This document shows, piece by piece, positions 3,376 through 30,309 of a stretch of 64,000 nt of DNA. How positions within the stretch are numbered: position 1 is the first letter of the stretch; the number at the start of each line of letters is the position of its first letter. The notes under the pieces were generated by a model. The model made no database searches. It was not told the DNA's origin and saw only the letters and a list, made by a program, of their open reading frames with translations. This stretch comes from Escherichia coli (GTDB lineage: Bacteria; Pseudomonadota; Gammaproteobacteria; Enterobacterales; Enterobacteriaceae): the NCBI RefSeq assembly GCF_016903815.1, contig NZ_CP069973.1, one strand, 5' to 3'. The position numbers and the translations under genes were made by a program.

Positions 3376-4328
3376 TCTCGAGACGCATCCGCGGCTTATG
3401 CCGCCAGCACGCGGTTGCGTCCATCATTTTTCGCCCGATACAAAGCATCATCAACGCGTTTAAACAGTTCATCGATGCTTTCATTTCCTTCGTGATGCGC
3501 CACACCAATGCTGACGGTAAAGCGTGGTAAGCCCGAAATACCCACTTTTGCCACGCTTACGCGGATAGTTTCAGCCAGCGAAAGCGCGGTATCCAGTGGG
3601 GTTCTTGGTAGCAATAAGACAAACTCTTCGCCTCCCCAACGAAACACCAAATCGCCTTTGCGAGCGCAACTTTCGAGAGTGCGGGCGAGGGTGCATAACA
3701 CCTCATCACCTTTAGAATGCCCATAGAGATCGTTAATGTGTTTAAAACGATCGGTGTCGATGAGCAATAAGCTGTAATCCTGAGCGATGGCGAGGTGCTG
3801 CATTTGGCCTGGCTCGGTAATGTGATAAAACTGTCGCCGATTCAGTAATCCGGTCATCGCGTCATGGTGGGCAGCATGTTCCAGCTGCTCCTCCAGCCGT
3901 TTTTGCTCAGTAATATCATGCACAATACATAACATGAGCTTGTCGCCATAAATTTCAATCGGACCGGCATAGGTCTGCACATGACGAGTCGAACCATCCG
4001 CCAGTTTATGAACAAAATTCAAAGGCTTATGGCCACCGGGTAAATGCGAAATTTCATGCATGATAGGCATGACGCGTCGCCCGAGCATATTTATTTCCCA
4101 GGTATGTTTCTGGCACATCGTTTCATGGTTATAGCCATAGAAATTGAGCGCGGCGAGGTTAGCATCGACGATTTGGCCATCTCGTGAGGGGTCAATCAAC
4201 AACATTGGTGCAGAGTTAGTCAGAAAAAAGCGCGCATAAAAACCTTGTTTTTTGCGCTGATAATTTGCCGAGCGACTGGCTTTTAAACCCAGCGTTGCCG
4301 GTGCTTCGATACCTTCGAAAATAATCAC

Positions 4329-4337
4329 CGGTTCTGC
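4329..4337. repeat. IS1 target-site duplication, left copy (CGGTTCTGC)
   Basis: An identical 9-mer directly abuts both IS1 ends (4329-4337 and 5106-5114). Confidence 0.95.
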
Positions 4338-4392
4338 GGTAATGCTGCCAACTTACTGATTTAGTGTATGATGGTGATTTTAAGGTGCTTGC

Positions 4393-4668
4393 GTGGCTTC
4401 CATTTCCATCAGATGTCCTTCCTGCTCCGCTACTGAAGGCGTGGTGCGTAACGGCAAAAGCACTGCCGGACATCAGCGCTATCTCTGCTCTCATTGCCGT
4501 AAAACATGGCAACTACAGTTCACTTACACCGCCTCTCAGCCCGGTACGCACCAGAAAATCATTGATATGGCCATGAATGGCGTCGGATGTCGCGCCAGTG
4601 CACGCATTATGGGCGTTGGCCTCAACACGGTTTTACGTCACTTAAAAAACTCAGGCCGCAGTCGGTAA
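4393..4668 (+). CDS. insA: IS1 InsA (transposition inhibitor / N-terminal part of the transposase)
   Basis: 91-aa [46 protein letters not shown]..., the canonical InsA. Confidence 0.9.
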
Positions 4669-5090
4669 CCTCGCGCATACAACCGGGCAGTGATGTGATT
4701 GTCTGCGCTGAAATGGACGAACAGTGGGGCTACGTCGGTGCTAAATCACGTCAGCGCTGGCTGTTTTACGCGTATGACAGGATACGGAGGACGGTTGTGG
4801 CGCACGTCTTCGGTGAACGCACTCTGGCCACACTGGAGCGTCTTCTGAGCCTGCTGTCGGCCTTTGAGGTCGTGGTATGGATGACGGATGGCTGGCCGCT
4901 GTATGAATCACGCCTGAAGGGAAAGCTGCACGTTATCAGCAAGCGTTACACTCAGCGCATTGAGCGACATAATCTGAATCTGAGACAACATCTGGCAAGG
5001 CTGGGACGGAAGTCACTGTCGTTCTCAAAATCGGTGGAGCTGCATGACAAGGTCATCGGGCATTATCTGAACATAAAACACTATCAGTAA
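4587..5090 (+). CDS. insB: IS1 insB' frame, expressed as InsAB' transposase by -1 frameshift
   Basis: 167-aa frame overlapping the insA end. The A6C slippery run lies at 4644-4650 (TTAAAAAAC), as in canonical IS1. Confidence 0.85.
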
Positions 5091-5105
5091 GTTGGAGTCA
5101 TTACC

Positions 5106-5114
5106 CGGTTCTGC
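5106..5114. repeat. IS1 target-site duplication, right copy (CGGTTCTGC)
   Basis: An identical 9-mer directly abuts both IS1 ends. Confidence 0.95.
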
Positions 5115-5638
5115 TTCTGTCAGCTTTCGCAAAACAAGCCGACAGCTCAATGCTGTTTCCTCTTCATTGCGCTGAACGGTGAGGATTTCGATAATATCGT
5201 GTTGGTTTTGCAGATCGGAGAGGTATTTCGGCAGTTCTTTTTGTGAGGAGACGGAATAGGGACCGGTTCGTAGCTGACTAAACGTGAGGTCTTGCATCAA
5301 CAGTCGCGCCGCGCTGTTGGCATAAATTAACTGTTCCTCAAAGGGCGAAACGATCCAGACAGGACTGGTGAGTAAGTCCAGGGTATTGAAGTTGTGCGTA
5401 ATCATTGAGATCCCGTTATTTTTATCAATTTTTGTTGCTATCCGATCGCAAAAAAGCCACGTCATATGATCAGATAATTCTGATAATGATAGACGCTATT
5501 TAACACTTCACACGGTTTGTATATGGAAAAGCATTTTGCTTTTTGTATTCAATTTAGACAGAATTTTATTAATCATTTCAGGGTAATGGGGTGATGAGAT
5601 GTTGCGTAACAGGGCCAGAAGGCTAGACTACAAAATAA

Positions 5639-11161: not shown

Positions 11162-11350
11162 TCACGAGGACTGAAGTTTCTCGCAATTAAAATTTATCAG
11201 TTTTACTTTCTGCTCTCTGGAAACGCCTGCTTCTTTTTTACCTGAGAGCATTTTTTCGCATTCTGATTTCGTTAGTTTAGATTTTGAATATCTTGTCCAG
11301 TTAGTAGGAGTGCCACCTTCCTTTTCAATAGTGGCGGTAATTTTATACAT
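11162..11350 (-). CDS. ydaC: Rac prophage protein YdaC
   Basis: 62 aa from MYKITATIEKEGGTPTNW..., with GGAGG 6 nt upstream of this ATG. The ORF track extends it to 11422. Confidence 0.65.
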   Translation of the reverse strand: MYKITATIEKEGGTPTNWTRYSKSKLTKSECEKMLSGKKEAGVSREQKVKLINFNCEKLQSS

Positions 11351-11387
11351 GAACACCTCCATTATTATTTCCAGTGGTTCGTTTATT

Positions 11388-11537
11388 TCATCGTTCGAGT
11401 GCTTCTTTTTCACTTCCACCATAACCGGTTCGGGATTCGCATCCGTTACACTTCGCTCGGTAATATCCTGAAATGGCTTTCACCGTTACTGATGGACAAC
11501 CACAAAATGGACATGGTTTAACATTGTCATATCTCAT
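11388..11537 (-). pseudogene. ralR: RalR (Lar) restriction-alleviation / type I toxin gene with a premature TGA
   Basis: The minus-strand product MRYDNVKPCPFCGCPSVTVKAISGYYRAKCNGCESRTGYGGSEKEALER stops at TGA, where I recall TGG (W50) in the 64-aa K-12 protein. The downstream frame would otherwise continue NKRTTGNNNGGVHV to 11343. Confidence 0.55.
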
Positions 11538-16279: not shown

Positions 16280-16768
16280 ATGTTGGATGTATTTACTCCA
16301 TTGTTGAAACTTTTTGCTAACGAGCCACTCGAAAGACTTATGTATACGATTATCATTTTTGGTCTCACTCTCTGGCTGATACCGAAAGAGTTTACTGTCG
16401 CATTCAATGCTTATACTGAAATACCTTGGCTCTTTCAGATTATCGTTTTTGCCTTTTCTTTCGTGGTCGCCATTTCCTTCTCAAGATTGCGAGCACATAT
16501 TCAAAAGCATTATTCATTACTACCAGAGCAACGAGTATTGCTTCGTTTATCTGAGAAAGAAATCGCTGTATTTAAAGATTTCCTTAAAACAGGAAATCTT
16601 ATTATCACTTCTCCTTGCCGTAACCCGGTTATGAAAAAATTAGAACGGAAGGGCATCATTCAACATCAGAGTGATAGCGCAAACTGTTCTTATTATCTCG
16701 TCACCGAAAAATACTCCCATTTTATGAAGTTATTCTGGAACAGCAGGAGTAGACGTTTTAATCGTTAG
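16280..16768 (+). CDS. sieB: superinfection exclusion protein SieB
   Basis: 162 aa from MLDVFTPLLKLFANEPLERLMYTIIIFGLTLWLIPKEF..., with 2 TM helices. It is oriented opposite to the early-left operon. Confidence 0.85.
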   Translation: MLDVFTPLLKLFANEPLERLMYTIIIFGLTLWLIPKEFTVAFNAYTEIPWLFQIIVFAFSFVVAISFSRLRAHIQKHYSLLPEQRVLLRLSEKEIAVFKDFLKTGNLIITSPCRNPVMKKLERKGIIQHQSDSANCSYYLVTEKYSHFMKLFWNSRSRRFNR

Positions 16769-16920
16769 CTTACTGTGTGCTTCTCCAACCATCGGCGCGC
16801 ACCAGTTTCGGTTTTAAATGTTTTGCTTTTGGTATACGTCATGGCAGTGAACGTTCCATCCTGGTTGGGGAACACGCCGCACACCAGGGATTCGTTGTTG
16901 CCGAGGTCGATTTTTTGCAT
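16765..16920 (-). CDS. ydaF: YdaF
   Basis: 51-aa minus-strand ORF MQKIDLGNNESLVCGVFPNQDGTFTAMTYTKSKTFKTETGARRWLEKHTVS. Confidence 0.7.
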   Translation of the reverse strand: MQKIDLGNNESLVCGVFPNQDGTFTAMTYTKSKTFKTETGARRWLEKHTVS

Positions 16921-22925: not shown

Positions 22926-23334
22926 TGAAAATTCCTCAAGTTGGAGAGTTCTGGAACATTAAGGCGAGGTGGCAGTAATGCACCATCTGTAATCTTTTGA
23001 TACTGACGTAATCGGGCCTGATGTGCAACGCCTTGCAAGTATGTAACTCATTGAAAACGATCATTTTTATCTATTGACATCAAATGGCAAACTGTCATTG
23101 TGCGGCTATGGCAAGTGGCAAATGCTTATAAATCATATGGATATAAATAGTACAGAAAGAGTTGTTTTCTCTAGGATATGAGTATACGCCCAATGCTGAT
23201 TGGTTGAATTTTGTTCTTGTTTTAAAGGGTAAGAGTTTAAAGTGTTGGCAGTGATGTATTGGATAGTTAGAATTGCTGTGGGTGCTTGAGGCTATCTGCC
23301 TCGGGCATGAACACCAAAGGTAGATAGAGAAAAG

Positions 23335-23402
23335 CCCCAGTTAACATTACGCGTCCTGCAAGACGTTTAACATTAATCTGAGGCCATATCTATGCGACAC
23401 AT
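23335..23402 (-). ncRNA. putative Sok-like antisense RNA
   Basis: The minus strand carries TTGACC, an 18-nt spacer and TAATCT opposite the mok/hok leader, by analogy to R1 hok/sok. The ends are approximate. Confidence 0.3.
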
Positions 23403-23447
23403 AGAGATTAGCCTCTTACGGACCGAAAGGTCAAGGAGAAGCAGGCT

Positions 23448-23573
23448 ATGAAGCAGCAAAAGGCGATGTTAATCGCCCTGATCGTCATCTGTTTAACCGT
23501 CATAGTGACGGCACTGGTAACGAGGAAAGACCTCTGCGAGGTACGAATCCGAACTGGCAGACGGAGGCTCTGA
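23448..23573 (+). pseudogene. hok-family (HokD/RelF-like) type I toxin gene, frameshifted and 3'-diverged
   Basis: The first 37 aa (MKQQKAMLIALIVICLTVIVTALVTRKDLCEVRIRTG) match recalled HokD. GGCAGACGGAGG appears where GGCCAGACGGAGG is expected, so a 1-nt loss gives ...RRRL stop at 41 aa. Upstream hok-type leader elements are present (GCTTGAGGCTATCTGCCTC, TAGCCTCTTAC, CAAGGAGAAG). Confidence 0.7.
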
Positions 23574-25464: not shown

Positions 25465-25754
25465 TGGTGGATTTACGTAAAGCGGCGCGGGGGCAGATGT
25501 GCACCGTCAGAATTCCTGGCTACTGCAATCACGATCCGGAAACGTCTGTGCTGGCGCATTACCGACTGGCGGGAACGTGCGGAACAGCGACAAAACCACA
25601 CGATATGCAGGCGGCGATTGCCTGTAGCTCATGCCACGATCTAATCGACGGGCGGGTAAAAACCAGCGATTACACCAAAGAAGAATTACGCCTGATGCAT
25701 GCAGAAGGTGTTTTTCGCACACAAGAAATCTGGAGAAAGGAGGGATATTTGTGA
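25464..25754 (+). CDS. YbcO-like protein (DUF1364, putative zinc-dependent nuclease)
   Basis: 96-aa ORF MVDLRKAARGQMCTVRIPGYCNHDPETSVLAHYRLAG...ACSSCHDLIDGR, colinear with recalled DLP12 YbcO. Confidence 0.8.
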   Translation: MVDLRKAARGQMCTVRIPGYCNHDPETSVLAHYRLAGTCGTATKPHDMQAAIACSSCHDLIDGRVKTSDYTKEELRLMHAEGVFRTQEIWRKEGYL

Positions 25755-26293
25755 TTTACCCAACGAATACAGGAAAAAGCGGAGAACACCTTCGTCTCGC
25801 CACGCTGGAAAGTGTCTGGATTCAGGGCAAACTGCGTATGTGGGGGCGCTGGTCGTATATTGGCGGTGGCAGGTCAGGAAATATGTTCAATCAGTTGTTG
25901 GCATCCAAAAAATTGACGAAAACAGCCATCAATGAAGCCCTGCGCAGAATGAAAAAAGCGGGAATAGAGAAAGCTGAGCTGGAAGCGTTTTTGCGAGAGA
26001 TGATCAACGGCAAGCAAAAGAGCTGGCTGGCGCATTGTACTGATGCAGAGGCGTTATGTATTGATCGAGTCATAAGTGAGGTGCTGGCAGAGCATCCTGG
26101 ATTGATTAGTGTCCTCCGGCAACGGTATGAAGGACGGGGGATGACTAAGCGCAAAATGGCTGAATTGCTAAATGATGCACATCCTGAGTGGTGTTTTAGC
26201 ACATGCGAAAAGCGAATTGCTAATTGGTTGGCTGTTGCTGAGTATGCCCTATATATTCCCATGCGAGAATCATTTGCTCAAAAAATAGCTTGA
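25751..26293 (+). CDS. putative late-gene antiterminator (Q-like)
   Basis: 180 aa from GTG 25751 (SD GGAGGG), overlapping the ybcO-like stop. The N-terminal LESVWIQGKLRMWGRWSY resembles the LERWG-W motif of gp23/QuuD-type Q proteins. It lies immediately upstream of a short terminated leader and the lysis genes. Confidence 0.55.
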   Translation: MIYPTNTGKSGEHLRLATLESVWIQGKLRMWGRWSYIGGGRSGNMFNQLLASKKLTKTAINEALRRMKKAGIEKAELEAFLREMINGKQKSWLAHCTDAEALCIDRVISEVLAEHPGLISVLRQRYEGRGMTKRKMAELLNDAHPEWCFSTCEKRIANWLAVAEYALYIPMRESFAQKIA

Positions 26294-26377
26294 TTTTTTA
26301 CGCATAAACTGCTTCAATTCCGGTATGCTTCGCAAAGCTGTATCGCGAGGCGAACCAAGCGCATGAACTTTACCAGA

Positions 26378-26407
26378 ACCCGCCATTGAGCGGGTTTTGT
26401 TGTTTCT
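26378..26407 (+). terminator. rho-independent terminator (tR'-like) downstream of the Q-like gene
   Basis: ACCCGC-cattga-GCGGGT followed by TTTGTTGTTT. Confidence 0.6.
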
Positions 26408-26514
26408 GGTACTGGTGAACCTGATGTTTCATTTCTGGAGCGCGATTCCTGGCGGAATACCTAGAATCGAGACATTCTGGTAAAATTGTTTTCAGTACAG
26501 GATGTGGAGGTGAG

Positions 26515-27084
26515 ATGAGAGAACTACCTAAAGATTATTTTTTAGGAGTAGATGATGAGCTCGTCGATTATCTTGAAAAACAAGGGGAAGAGACGATACG
26601 AGAGATTCATCTTTCTAACAAAACCAATGTTGAGAATGGATACAAACTTCTGAACATTCAGATTGTTGGAATTGGTTCATCTTTTTTATTGCTGACACAG
26701 AAAACTAATTTCGATTTTCTCACCGCCGGAATTACCACATTTACATTACTATGGACATGGTGCGCCATTTACTTGGTATGTACTGGTTTATCTGTGAAGG
26801 TTAGGGGCCTGATCAATGCCCCTCCTGATCATCTATATCATGAAAAATATAAGGATATGGAGCCCTCGAGCTTTAAAATATTCGCTGATGCAGGATATTT
26901 AGGACCTGATAAGTTATTGCCGCTTATACGAAGGTATCGCCTTGTTGACTTGAGTGATACAGCAAGAGAGTTACTGTTGGAAAATGAGAAAATCCGCACG
27001 AGTCTCGATAAAGCAAGGATGTATACCATCCTTGCTCCGGTAGCGGCGATGTTTATCTCGGCTGTTTTTTTATATGTTCAATGA
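26515..27084 (+). CDS. uncharacterised 3-TM membrane protein (moron between Q and lysis cassette)
   Basis: 189-aa ORF with SD GGAGGTGAG upstream. It has a soluble N-terminus of about 40 aa, two adjacent TM helices (res about 45-92), a soluble helical region and a C-terminal TM. It is visibly more AT-rich than its neighbours. Confidence 0.7.
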   Translation: MRELPKDYFLGVDDELVDYLEKQGEETIREIHLSNKTNVENGYKLLNIQIVGIGSSFLLLTQKTNFDFLTAGITTFTLLWTWCAIYLVCTGLSVKVRGLINAPPDHLYHEKYKDMEPSSFKIFADAGYLGPDKLLPLIRRYRLVDLSDTARELLLENEKIRTSLDKARMYTILAPVAAMFISAVFLYVQ

Positions 27085-27214
27085 CTGAGTCGGCAGAATC
27101 TCCAACAAAAACACGACGTGTAGCAAAGTCTGTAGTACTTTGTGTTGGAGTTGGTTTTGGTGCCACGGGTTGCTGAGGTTTATTTTCACCTTGTGGTTTG
27201 TTTTTTTCAGACAT
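27053..27214 (-). CDS. possible 53-aa hydrophilic Pro/Gln-rich protein, convergent and overlapping
   Basis: Product is MSEKNKPQGENKPQQPVAPKPTPTQSTTDFATRRVFVGDSADSVIEHIKKQPR, with SD AAGAGGA upstream. Its 3' end overlaps the 3' end of the 189-aa gene by 32 nt. Confidence 0.4.
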   Translation of the reverse strand: MSEKNKPQGENKPQQPVAPKPTPTQSTTDFATRRVFVGDSADSVIEHIKKQPR

Positions 27215-27308
27215 AAAAATCCTCTTTGTTTGAATTGTTACTTTTGGCGATTTAACGATATCAAACACGAGTATATACCGCCAGAAGCTTAATCTGGCAC
27301 TCCATCTG

Positions 27309-27333
27309 GCCCCGGCATGTCCCGGGGCTTTTT
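27309..27333 (+). terminator. rho-independent terminator upstream of the holin
   Basis: GCCCCGG-catgtc-CCGGGGC followed by TTTTT. Confidence 0.6.
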
Positions 27334-27431
27334 CGTTGTTAGGCTCTGGAAACATCCTCGACTTCTTGTTAGCAAGCCTGAGAGCCTGAATCTTACACTT
27401 AGCACCATCCGAACTCTCGGAGGTGAGGCTT

Positions 27432-27773
27432 ATGAAAATGCACAATGCCCCTCATTCCTGGCCTGACTTACTGGAACTCTTACAAAGTTGGTGGCGTGGA
27501 GATACGCCGCTGGGTGCAGTGGTTATGTCAATTATTATGGCTGGTTTGCGCATTGCCTATTTTGGCGGTGGCGGCGGCTGGAAACGAAAAACGCTTGAGA
27601 TTCTGCTTTGTGGTGCTCTGACGCTGACCTTTGCATCCGCGCTTGAGTATGTCGGATGGCCTAAATCACTTTCTGTTGCCATTGGTGGTGGGGTGGGGCT
27701 GATTGGTGTTGATGCTATTCGTGGTGCGGCAATGAGGGTCATCGGTAACAAGTTCGGTGCCCATAAGGAGTAA
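27432..27773 (+). CDS. class I holin (lambda S-like) with an MKM dual-start motif
   Basis: 113 aa with 3 predicted TMs. The ATGAAAATG start resembles lambda S107/S105. It lies immediately upstream of R. Confidence 0.85.
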   Translation: MKMHNAPHSWPDLLELLQSWWRGDTPLGAVVMSIIMAGLRIAYFGGGGGWKRKTLEILLCGALTLTFASALEYVGWPKSLSVAIGGGVGLIGVDAIRGAAMRVIGNKFGAHKE

Positions 27774-28851: not shown

Positions 28852-30309
28852 ATGAATACATCTCATGTAAGAGTTGTTACTCATATGTGTGGGTTCCTGG
28901 TTTGGCTCTATAGTCTTTCAATGTTGCCACCAATGGTTGTAGCATTGTTTTATAAAGAAAAAAGCCTGTTCGTTTTCTTTATAACTTTCGTTATATTTTT
29001 TTGCATTGGTGGCGGAGCGTGGTATACAACTAAGAAATCTGGCATTCAATTACGTACCCGTGATGGGTTTATTATAATTGTAATGTTTTGGATTTTGTTT
29101 TCTGTTATTAGTGCATTCCCTTTATGGATTGACTCAGAACTTAATTTAACGTTCATTGATGCTCTGTTTGAAGGGGTTTCTGGAATAACAACAACAGGAG
29201 CAACTGTAATTGATGATGTTAGTTCATTACCTCGGGCATATTTGTACTATCGGTCACAGTTAAATTTTATAGGTGGTTTAGGAGTTATTGTTCTGGCGGT
29301 TGCTGTATTGCCATTATTGGGTATTGGTGGTGCAAAGCTTTATCAGTCAGAAATGCCGGGGCCATTTAAGGATGACAAACTCACTCCCCGCCTGGCCGAT
29401 ACGTCACGGACACTGTGGATAACTTATTCTTTATTAGGTATTGCTTGTATTGTCTGTTATAGACTTGCAGGAATGCCTTTGTTTGATGCTATTTGTCACG
29501 GGATTTCCACAGTTTCGCTTGGTGGTTTCTCAACTCATAGCGAGAGTATCGGATATTTTAATAACTATTTGGTTGAGCTGGTGGCTGGTTCTTTTTCCCT
29601 GCTATCGGCTTTCAACTTCACTCTTTGGTATATTGTTATTAGCAGGAAAACGATAAAACCTTTAATCAGAGATATTGAACTTCGTTTCTTTCTGTTAATA
29701 GCCTTAGGGGTGATCATTGTTACCTCTTTCCAGGTCTGGCATATAGGTATGTATGACTTGCATGGAAGTTTTATTCATTCGTTTTTTCTTGCCAGCTCCA
29801 TGCTCACTGATAATGGTTTAGCTACGCAGGATTATGCAAGTTGGCCCACGCACACGATAGTGTTTTTGCTGTTGTCAAGTTTCTTTGGGGGATGTATAGG
29901 TTCAACTTGTGGTGGAATTAAGTCACTTCGATTTCTTATACTTTTCAAACAAAGCAAACACGAGATAAATCAGCTTTCTCATCCCAGAGCGTTGTTGAGT
30001 GTAAATGTAGGAGGGAAGATAGTTACAGATCGTGTAATGAGGTCTGTATGGAGTTTCTTTTTTCTTTATACTCTCTTCACGGTGTTTTTTATACTGGTGT
30101 TAAATGGTATGGGATATGATTTTCTTACATCATTTGCAACAGTGGCTGCATGTATTAATAATATGGGATTAGGTTTTGGGGCTACTGCATCGTCATTCGG
30201 AGTGCTTAATGACATTGCAAAATGTTTAATGTGCATAGCTATGATTCTTGGTCGCCTTGAAATTTATCCTGTTATTATATTGTTTTCAGGTTTTTTTTGG
30301 CGCTCCTAA
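28852..30309 (+). CDS. trkG: Trk-system K+ uptake protein TrkG
   Basis: 485 aa from MNTSHVRVVTHMCGFLVWLYSLSMLPPMVVALFYKEKSLF..., matching recalled K-12 TrkG. The gene is strongly AT-rich. Confidence 0.95.
   Translation: MNTSHVRVVTHMCGFLVWLYSLSMLPPMVVALFYKEKSLFVFFITFVIFFCIGGGAWYTTKKSGIQLRTRDGFIIIVMFWILFSVISAFPLWIDSELNLTFIDALFEGVSGITTTGATVIDDVSSLPRAYLYYRSQLNFIGGLGVIVLAVAVLPLLGIGGAKLYQSEMPGPFKDDKLTPRLADTSRTLWITYSLLGIACIVCYRLAGMPLFDAICHGISTVSLGGFSTHSESIGYFNNYLVELVAGSFSLLSAFNFTLWYIVISRKTIKPLIRDIELRFFLLIALGVIIVTSFQVWHIGMYDLHGSFIHSFFLASSMLTDNGLATQDYASWPTHTIVFLLLSSFFGGCIGSTCGGIKSLRFLILFKQSKHEINQLSHPRALLSVNVGGKIVTDRVMRSVWSFFFLYTLFTVFFILVLNGMGYDFLTSFATVAACINNMGLGFGATASSFGVLNDIAKCLMCIAMILGRLEIYPVIILFSGFFWRS

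Follow-up and report, generated by a model that had tools for sequence, protein, structure and literature searches.

A convergent two-gene moron in the Q-to-holin slot of a Rac-type Escherichia coli prophage, with predicted antisense control in both directions

The junction between the antiterminator gene Q and the holin gene S of lambdoid phages is a place where cargo genes, or morons, are kept: stx in the Shiga toxin (Stx) phages, the nmpC/lc porin with IpeX, and clusters of tRNA genes. The moron concept itself is said to go back to Hendrix and Juhala. Here we analyse a stretch of 64,000 nucleotides (nt) of Escherichia coli DNA from contig NZ_CP069973.1, which we call the window, and in which positions 26410-27417 (about) are an AT-rich cargo cassette of two genes in the Q-to-holin slot of a Rac-type prophage. 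One gene encodes a protein of 189 amino acids (aa) with three transmembrane segments (TMs); the other, convergent with the first and overlapping it at the 3' end, encodes a small protein of 53 aa. A preliminary description of the locus had singled out this unit, and our analysis confirms that observation and leaves it stronger than first described: the cassette is an autonomous, horizontally mobile two-gene moron of temperate phages. Like the other Q-S junction morons it is an AT-rich insert 3' of the terminator tR' and 5' of the holin, with a predicted promoter and a terminator of its own; unlike them it consists of an uncharacterised convergent pair of apparently reciprocal antisense design, which is also found at immunity-region and Mu-like sites.

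Several 3'-overlapping antisense systems have been described, among them lambda oop/cII, bsrG/SR4 of a B. subtilis prophage, txpA/RatA and par/Fst of pAD1, and in these the outcome to be expected is duplex-dependent decay. By analogy, the regulatory logic of the cassette seems closest to lambda oop/cII and to the 3'-overlapping type I toxin-antitoxin (TA) systems such as bsrG/SR4, with an IS10-like element in addition. The cassette has in common with these loci the convergent units, the (here predicted) 3'-overlapping RNAs and an antisense hairpin inside the coding sequence (CDS) of the partner. It differs from them in that the antisense RNA encodes a conserved protein, with a ratio of nonsynonymous to synonymous substitution rates (dN/dS) of 0.23, and in that the putative toxin is a 189-aa protein with three TMs and not a hydrophobic peptide of fewer than 60 aa; moreover, the cassette is known from sequence. 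As in RNA-IN/RNA-OUT of the insertion sequence IS10, the predicted promoters stand face to face and the predicted 5' end of one RNA falls in the loop of the opposite hairpin, which covers the Shine-Dalgarno sequence (SD) too. In the cassette, unlike IS10, the hairpin lies within the 3' region of a long mRNA and is followed by two more hairpins, and the start sites are predicted ones.

Prophage membrane proteins offer a further comparison. Classical exclusion factors such as P22 SieA, T4 Imm and HK97 gp15 are inner-membrane proteins of prophages with promoters of their own. Like rexAB and sieB (P22, lambda, Rac), the cassette contains a temperate-phage membrane protein that is probably expressed in lysogens. 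In one distant homolog (locus L108) the small partner follows a gene for a cI-type repressor, as lambda rexA does, and Rac sieB, too, is convergent with a small gene, ydaF. The differences are that there is no sequence relationship to these proteins (a profile comparison with SieB by hhalign gave a probability of 0.2%), no match to any PADLOC model, and a different topology. Finally, with the SLATT, YLATT and PycTM effectors the membrane protein shares a predicted cytoplasmic helix that leads into a tight TM hairpin, and a membrane-disrupting role would be plausible for it; it differs in having no significant profile match, no signalling partners, and an extra domain and third TM.

The gene pair, its setting and its spread

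The prophage of the window appears complete and lies at ttcA; its genes include intR, recET, kilR, sieB and trkG, together with those of a racR-like immunity region and of head and tail. To the left of the cassette is a Q-like antiterminator gene, which the NCBI annotation pipeline (PGAP) labels as a DUF1133 family protein, and 3' of it follow the genes for a lambda-family holin, an endolysin and Rz (Table 1). The limits of the cassette can be read off from related prophages. Homology with sibling Rac-type prophages that carry other cargo runs through Q and a tR'-like terminator and stops at 26408-26409, beyond which the siblings have tRNA-Thr/Gly, another small open reading frame (ORF) and a different holin, and homology with other lambda-holin prophages restarts at about 27418. 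Since the sibling homology runs through the left terminator to 26409, we assign this terminator (stem 26374-26399, tail up to 26409; enclosing segment -18.0 kcal/mol, z -4.8) to the Q module, as its tR'-like element, and not to the cassette. The unit had been described as bracketed by two plus-strand terminators; both of them exist, and it is the ownership of the left one that has to be revised. Correspondingly, the 117 nt directly after Q, with the left terminator, were found in 1444 complete E. coli genomes, as against 222 for the cassette.

The GC content of the 189-aa ORF is 0.389 and that of the cassette 0.409, whereas Q has 0.47, the lysis genes have 0.51 and the window as a whole has 0.473, so that the unit is indeed AT-rich (0.39-0.41), as had been said. 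A slot that is filled differently in related phages, predicted promoters and a plus-strand terminator belonging to the insert, and a GC content of 0.41 between flanks of 0.47-0.51 together give the cassette the features of a moron, again as the preliminary description had supposed, and the comparisons among sequences establish that the contents of the slot are swappable.

Table 1. Features of the cassette and its neighbours (positions in the window)
Feature	Position	Strand	Basis and details
Q-like antiterminator gene (context, outside the cassette)	25751-26293	+	Pfam DUF1133, 1e-106; Phage_antitermQ, 2.4e-6, above its cutoff
tR'-like intrinsic terminator of the Q/late-promoter module, left edge of the cargo slot	26374-26409	+	terminator scan and fold
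Predicted promoter of the 189-aa gene, extended -10 TGgTAAAAT	26478-26486	+	predicted start ~26493
Gene for the 189-aa three-TM inner-membrane protein	26515-27084	+	ORF; GGAGG at 26506-26510
Minus-strand hairpin within the 189-aa CDS	27007-27041	-	16 nt past the stop of the small gene; stems 27027-27036 and 27012-27021
Gene for the 53-aa protein, convergent with the 189-aa gene	27053-27214	-	ORF; AGAGGA 6 nt before ATG
Hairpin A, antisense to SD, leader and promoter of the small gene	27222-27271	+	fold; conserved loop 27241-27252
Predicted promoter of the small gene, extended -10 TGaTATCGT	27255-27263	-	predicted start ~27248, in the loop of hairpin A
Hairpin B, GCCAGA-N7-TCTGGC, to the right of hairpin A and to the left of the terminator	27280-27298	+	fold
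Intrinsic terminator closing the plus-strand unit	27308-27338	+	terminator scan and fold; stem 27308-27329, U-tract 27330-27334
Lambda-family holin gene (context, right neighbour)	27432-27773	+	Pfam Phage_holin_3_1, 1.9e-27; PGAP

Both ORFs, their SDs and the 32-nt overlap of their 3' ends (27053-27084) are where they had been placed, and the evidence of sequence conservation makes both of them real genes: they are not chance ORFs because both match families of the PHROG database (phrog_11870 at 6e-108 for the 189-aa protein, phrog_14506 at 6e-33 for the 53-aa protein) and both are under purifying selection, the median dN/dS being 0.10 for the 189-aa gene and the value already given for the small one. 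The SD of the small gene is conserved as well. The 53-aa protein is basic (isoelectric point 9.7), hydrophilic (grand average of hydropathicity -1.24), rich in Pro, Gln and Lys and of low complexity, with the family motif MSxxNKP..KPQP..DF..R..VGDSA[DE]..RKK.K; a search with it returned close relatives only. PGAP chooses a start that gives a 71-aa version (27053-27268). We reject this start and expect the real product to have about 50 aa, because other species either have no open frame upstream or have the conserved upstream DNA in a different frame.

For the membrane protein, AlphaFold2 with 42 homologs as input gave a model (pLDDT 82.6) in which residues 14-62, 68-92 and 134-188 are helical, and uncharged hydrophobic stretches, which correspond approximately to the TMs, are found at 46-62, 68-92 and 168-188. 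An acidic N-terminal helix leads into TM1, the loop is short, and the 75-residue middle region is rich in Lys and Arg, as expected of a cytoplasmic segment. The predicted topology is most likely one with the N-terminus inside and the C-terminus outside. This agrees with the architecture first proposed: an N-terminal helix, a hairpin of two TMs, a helical middle and a C-terminal TM. Among the strongly conserved features of the family are LEKQGE, SN..N.ENGYKLL, IVGIGSSF (in TM1) and RRYRL. Its homologs form 104 clusters in Enterobacterales, almost all of exactly 189 aa and all annotated as hypothetical; an exhaustive profile search gave 100 clusters at 50% identity, and a scan of genome contigs gave 8 loci only. 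Truncated variants of the membrane gene (P0033, P0084 and P0097) are in circulation.

The pair occurs in approximately 100 loci across Enterobacterales, in prophages of Klebsiella, Citrobacter, Salmonella, Serratia, Yersinia, Proteus, Providencia, Morganella and Pantoea, and in approximately 4% of complete E. coli genomes; homologs of the 189-aa protein are found in these genera, in Escherichia and in others. The 'phages' named vB_EcoS among the carriers are in-silico prophages from clinical isolates. The small convergent ORF, which had been noticed beside the membrane gene, turns out to be a real conserved partner: it is recognisable in 95 of the 99 fetched loci, and those where it was first missed either show motif variants consistent with this family or contain a frameshift or an N. 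The two genes are convergent in every locus. All Enterobacterales loci examined have the cassette between Q and holin, with a recognisable Q upstream in 22 of 31 representative loci. Four antiterminator families (Phage_antitermQ, Antiterm, DUF1133 and Phage_antiter_Q) are represented among the upstream neighbours, and at least five unrelated holin families among the downstream ones.

Distant homologs, at 20-30% identity, retain a convergent, 3'-overlapping small partner of the type 'MSE.K...' at other sites of the genome. In L108 the small gene follows the cI-type repressor gene (Peptidase_S24) at a distance of 16 nt and on the same strand; in L109 the pair stands between the repressor and the early-left operon; in L105, a Mu-like phage, it stands between DUF1804 and the large terminase; and in L110 it is found behind a 285-aa gene without assigned function. 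Because the distant homologs keep the partner at these other sites, the conserved features are the pairing and the convergent overlap, and not adjacency to a holin.

Some loci have further genes in the slot. Serratia prophages have an Ogr/Delta zinc-finger gene immediately before the cassette (L005 and L006, 4754-4939) and a 74-aa gene immediately after it (L004-L006, 5829-6053). The 74-aa protein resembles a 76-aa plus-strand protein of E. coli A41, which suggests that several small cargo genes shuffle in the slot.

Just to the left of the cassette, the stretch 26228-26409 combines a promoter-like sequence (TTGGCT-18-TATATT) in the 3' end of the Q-like gene with the left terminator, and would give a predicted transcript of ~145 nt that may be likened to lambda 6S or StxS RNA. 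The stretch is common to 1444 E. coli genomes, and no Rfam family matched it.

Predicted promoters and RNA structures

The promoters proposed for the two genes are predictions that rest on conservation. Upstream of the 189-aa gene, the hexamer TA[ATG][AG][AG]T, a -10 element of the sigma-70 type, occurs 28-35 nt before the ATG in 45 of 55 distinct upstream regions, and within 15-60 nt in 46 of the 55; it is often TTCAGGTAAAAT and stands after the tR'-like terminator. Similar -10 motifs are found in distant homologs located elsewhere in the genome (TTCAGGTAAAGT in L108, TTCAGTATAAT in L110 and AGTAAAAT in L109). For the small gene, the block to the right of its ATG is better conserved than coding DNA and must itself be non-coding, because it lies in different frames relative to the ORF across species. 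In 38 of 44 distinct cassettes it contains TGnTAnnnT at 35-48 nt before the ATG, in the form TGnTAT(C/T)GT on the minus strand, where TG, T-12, A-11 and T-7 are invariant and the other positions vary. We read the block as the predicted extended -10 promoter of the small gene, with transcription starting near 27248; the leader would then be 34 nt long and unstructured, with a fold energy of 0 kcal/mol. Independent support for this reading comes from the apparent reuse of the element in E. coli A41 (L113, 2501-2612), where the 111-nt element that corresponds to 27230-27340 precedes, by 15 nt, another gene on the minus strand, of 92 aa, which is itself convergent and overlapping with the 76-aa plus-strand gene.

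Two other interpretations of the conserved block were considered and rejected: as a plus-strand promoter, since the plus-strand hexamers are without the key -7 T, and as a Q-utilisation site, since the element travels with the cassette behind four unrelated Q families. A separate plus-strand promoter for a small RNA (sRNA) was looked for near the start of the small gene, and no conserved one was found. As an observation apart, the 111-nt promoter, hairpin and terminator element also occurs in other E. coli prophages (H116-H120) that have neither gene of the pair; placed by the lambda-type holin, it gives the impression of a portable module for control in both directions.

Both strands of the cassette carry hairpins that appear to have been kept by selection. 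On the plus strand, hairpin A had 80.9% of its cells paired in the covariation analysis, compared with 34-50% in slid controls; eight of its pairs had changed on both sides (2 of 500 shuffles), and its score was 0.245 against 0.180 (0 of 500). The G-U pairs assign it to the plus strand, 58 being valid there only and 21 on the minus strand only. The predicted start of the small mRNA (~27248) falls in the conserved loop of this hairpin. Hairpin B shows, on inspection, a compensatory change in Morganella (GCCAGT...ACTGGC) and G-U variants that fit the plus strand; another subgroup has a different hairpin in its place. The 63-nt stretch that holds hairpin B and the right terminator has a fold energy of -25.5 kcal/mol (z -3.3), and a hairpin with a T-run is found at the place of the right terminator in most cassettes. 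This terminator is predicted to insulate the holin from lysogenic transcription. In three loci (L053, L056 and L058) a tRNA-like sequence (GGCCCTTTAGCTCAG...CTCATAA...GGTTCAAGTCC, read by eye) stands in place of the plus-strand terminator, directly after the promoter region of the small gene, and recalls the tRNA clusters of Stx phages. Rfam, searched with 26200-27500, returned no family and chance-level matches only.

On the minus strand, a hairpin just beyond the small gene is embedded in the codons of the membrane protein for K-A-R-M-Y-T-I-L-A. It is present in 41 of 41 distinct cassettes, and in 37 of these its minus-strand form is the more stable one (mean -19.5 against -14.4 kcal/mol); 83% of cells are paired, as against 40-49% in slid controls, and covariation is 0.317 against 0.203 (0 of 500 shuffles). 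Covariation extends to synonymous third positions (GC 17, AU 15), and one pair is G-U in 33 of 36, for which the plus-strand equivalent would be A:C. Comparable minus-strand hairpins occur in the distant homologs L105 (Mu-like) and L109 (immunity region). We consider it likely, from these patterns, that this hairpin is a 3'-end element of the small gene's mRNA, either a terminator or a stabiliser.

How do these elements bear on transcription? As the only plus-strand terminator of the unit lies beyond the small-gene promoter, every mRNA of the 189-aa gene would be antisense to the whole small gene, and the small-gene transcript is predicted to run back into the last 70-75 nt of the 189-aa CDS. 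A cis-antisense overlap of the predicted transcripts is forced by the architecture, and the conserved, strand-specific hairpins support transcripts on both strands. Each predicted transcript thus carries a selected structure inside the territory of the other gene, which is evidence, of an evolutionary kind, for transcription of both strands and for overlap between the two RNAs. The suggestion of mutually antisense transcripts was part of the preliminary description, and the conserved promoters, the position of the terminator and the strand-specific hairpins now strongly imply it.

Possible functions of the pair

Comparison with known families gives little guidance. Neither protein has a match in Pfam, NCBIfam or PADLOC; the 189-aa protein hits 0 Pfam families at E<=1, PADLOC-DB v2 gives 0 families at E<=10 for both proteins, and in PHROGs both belong to families of 'unknown function' only. 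PDB and BFVD contain no structural relative of the membrane protein, and no solved structure matches either protein. A literature search on the protein accessions, the PHROG ids and Q-holin defence hotspots returned nothing relevant, and the literature on 8xMP was uninformative. Nor does the pair fit the type I or type II TA systems. Type I systems have a hydrophobic or toxic peptide of fewer than 60 aa and a non-coding antitoxin, and here the membrane protein has 189 aa, the 53-aa protein is hydrophilic, and the antisense gene encodes a protein conserved by selection. Type II systems are bicistronic operons with a DNA-binding antitoxin, and here the genes are convergent everywhere and the small protein has no Pfam domain. 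Membership among holins or antiholins finds no Pfam or PHROG functional match, and the distant homologs are away from lysis genes.

Our preferred reading, which we regard as a serious candidate and stop short of calling probable, is that the pair is an effector-antidote switch, where a membrane effector is checked by antisense and by a protein partner and acts in exclusion, in abortive infection or at induction. The membrane protein would be the effector and perturb the inner membrane, and the small gene would be the partner of the lysogenic state that holds it down in the lysogen. The small gene seems placed for lysogenic expression because it is oriented against late transcription and because in L108 it follows the cI-type repressor gene closely and on the same strand. 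Its mRNA could act as a 3'-overlapping antisense RNA, through duplex formation, cleavage by RNase III and transcriptional interference, with the small protein possibly as a second layer of control. Three events might trip the switch: Q-antiterminated late transcription through the cassette; in the cI-adjacent arrangement, the cessation of transcription of the repressor operon; and the shut-off of host transcription by a superinfecting phage. The membrane protein would then accumulate and bring about exclusion, abortive infection or an induction-specific membrane function. Control could also be reciprocal, as the loop of hairpin A and the predicted 5' end of the small mRNA are complementary to each other, in the geometry of IS10 RNA-OUT/RNA-IN.

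The pattern of gene loss in E. coli fits this antidote logic weakly. An intact small-gene region is found in 227 genomes, as against 223 with an intact 5' part of the 189-aa gene and 222 with the whole cassette intact; deletions by the insertion sequence IS1, with a breakpoint at 27012, remove the membrane gene and spare the small gene and its hairpin, and none of the sampled genomes has the membrane gene without the small gene.

Several points weigh against an effector-antidote switch. The loss asymmetry rests on a handful of genomes. In the IMG/VR locus L038 the small ORF is frameshifted and the membrane gene intact, possibly through a homopolymer error, and a lineage of at least 7 complete E. 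coli genomes, which includes EC20, EC22 and ST361 strains, has a 1-nt deletion in the overlap (G27064) that alters both C-termini, so that PGAP then gives a 190-aa protein and no small ORF. The minus-strand hairpin is not followed by a consistent U-tract, and for this reason may not terminate transcription. A generic two-hexamer scan did not flag either predicted promoter. Morganella and Pantoea are without the -10 element of the membrane gene, and their tR'-like terminator abuts the ribosome-binding site, so in these genera the membrane gene may be purely late.

A broader version of the effector-antidote reading, which we think somewhat unlikely, is that the cassette represents a new class of phage module. 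Here a three-TM toxin would be controlled by a convergent gene of dual function, whose mRNA is antisense and whose protein is neutralising or regulatory. To the same degree of doubt, the RNA structures would be written into the CDS of the partner and the whole would serve as a switch for abortive infection, exclusion or induction; and, as a third part of equal standing, such a module would be able to insert at the Q-holin junction, in the immunity region or in late regions of the Mu-like kind.

It is also conceivable, if unlikely, that the membrane protein is not toxic at all and serves lysogenic conversion or superinfection exclusion in the manner of the Sie proteins, for example by keeping out the DNA of related phages. 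In that case the small gene and the antisense arrangement would only tune the level of the membrane protein, the small protein being a regulator or an unrelated second cargo. Inner-membrane proteins expressed from promoters of their own are what classical exclusion factors of prophages are; the cassette has such a predicted promoter and an insulating terminator, its distant homologs sit in immunity-region slots like those of rexAB and sieB, and the same prophage already has a convergent sieB/ydaF pair. However, tuned exclusion leaves unexplained why the small partner is retained in nearly every locus and context, and why reciprocal RNA structures are selected even at synonymous sites, and we found no similarity to SieB or to any PADLOC model. 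Kinship with SieB (PF14163) was rejected by the hhalign comparison mentioned above, made between a 78-sequence profile and the SieB encoded at 16280-16768 of the window, and YdaF has no similarity to the small protein. Quite unlikely, in our estimate, is an accessory role in lysis timing (antiholin, holin modulator or pre-lysis factor), with the membrane gene as the first Q-dependent late gene and an antisense gene that silences it in lysogens. The constant position between Q and holin in Enterobacterales, the recognisable Q in 22 of 31 representative loci, the five or more holin families downstream, the shared orientation with the late operon, and the Morganella and Pantoea genes that stand directly after a tR'-like terminator without a promoter of their own all speak for such a role. 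Against these stand the strong terminator between the membrane gene and the holin, the predicted promoter of most cassettes, and sibling prophages that have the same Q and manage without the cassette. Lysis timing was among the first suggestions for this locus; the position beside the lysis genes stands, and the idea is weakened by distant homologs that keep the same partner beside a cI-type repressor gene or, in a Mu-like late region, between terminase genes, at a distance from any holin. Moreover, because the partner holins are of unrelated families, a specific protein-protein partnership with the holin is unlikely.

The roles might instead be reversed, in a type I TA system whose toxin is the 53-aa basic protein, a non-membrane toxin like RalR or SymE, and whose antitoxin is the plus-strand hairpin RNA, the 189-aa gene being merely the upstream part of the antitoxin transcript. 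We hold this to be highly unlikely. It is true that a plus-strand RNA of three hairpins, with covariation and a conserved loop, covers the SD and 5' end of the small gene in a geometry like those of IS10 RNA-OUT/RNA-IN and Sok/hok, and that the window has two other type I systems, RalR/RalA and hok/sok. However, the search for a conserved plus-strand sRNA promoter near the start of the small gene was negative, viable strains that have lost the 189-aa gene and its promoter through IS1 deletions still have an intact small gene, the 111-nt element serves a different gene in A41, and a position after the cI-type repressor gene in the same operon, as in L108, is an odd place for a toxin. An even more distant prospect, and one to which we attach hardly any probability, is that the membrane protein is a divergent two-TM effector of the SLATT/DUF4231 type, from the nucleotide-signalling abortive-infection systems, as had been suggested from its architecture. 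The modelled shape, with an N-terminal cytoplasmic helix entering a tight two-TM hairpin, is compatible, and relatives have isolated sub-threshold matches to TM effectors of conflict systems (SLATT_3 at 0.13, in one relative; PycTM at 0.016; YLATT at 0.054, in 3 members; 8xMP at 0.019, in 6 members). These matches, however, fall well short of the curated cut-offs and are spread across numerous unrelated TM families, and in a Pfam scan of 78 members of the family SLATT and DUF4231 were not among the 25 most frequent of the 72 families hit. Furthermore, there is no cyclase, SLOG, SMODS, TIR or other signalling gene in any locus, the neighbours being Q, holin, cI-type repressor and terminase; the third TM and the 75-residue middle domain are extra to the type; and PDB and BFVD hold no relative. 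The suggested resemblance is thus not supported.

Whichever reading applies, the pair is widespread yet unannotated and is absent from the catalogues of defence systems, and it occupies the slot in which lambdoid phages keep high-impact cargo such as Shiga toxin. Evidence of the present kind, a selected hairpin in the CDS of the opposite-strand gene with synonymous covariation, and a mirror-image hairpin over the promoter of the partner, is seldom seen, and bears on reciprocal antisense control between two protein-coding genes. If the pair is an effector-antidote switch, it would be a new architecture for TA and abortive-infection biology and a compact, portable switch of expression; if it is a tuned exclusion gene only, it would still be a new family of prophage membrane proteins.

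Other elements in the window

The sieB gene (plus strand, 16280-16768) and ydaF (minus strand, 16765-16920) are convergent with an overlap of 4 nt, and ydaF comes after the repressor-side operon. The cI-adjacent distant homologs of the cassette have the same layout; the proteins are unrelated to those of the cassette. Two type I systems are present. The RalR/RalA pair of Rac is found at 11166-11537, with RalA matching Rfam RF02694 at 225 bits and the ralR CDS on the minus strand at 11388-11537, and a toxin gene of the hok/Gef family (23448-23573) together with a match to sok RNA (Rfam RF01794, 101.5 bits) occupies the region 23280-23573, upstream of the DUF1367-YbcO-Q block. Just outside the prophage (3396-5405), a copy of IS1 (4393-5090) lies by a truncated dgcM and a truncated hypothetical gene, and a DHA2 efflux permease gene at 1103-2558 is frameshifted. 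In the late region, the potassium transporter gene trkG (28852-30309) stands between Rz and a ParB/Srx-like gene; trkG is a known cargo gene of Rac, and is found here in an apparently complete, non-defective Rac relative.

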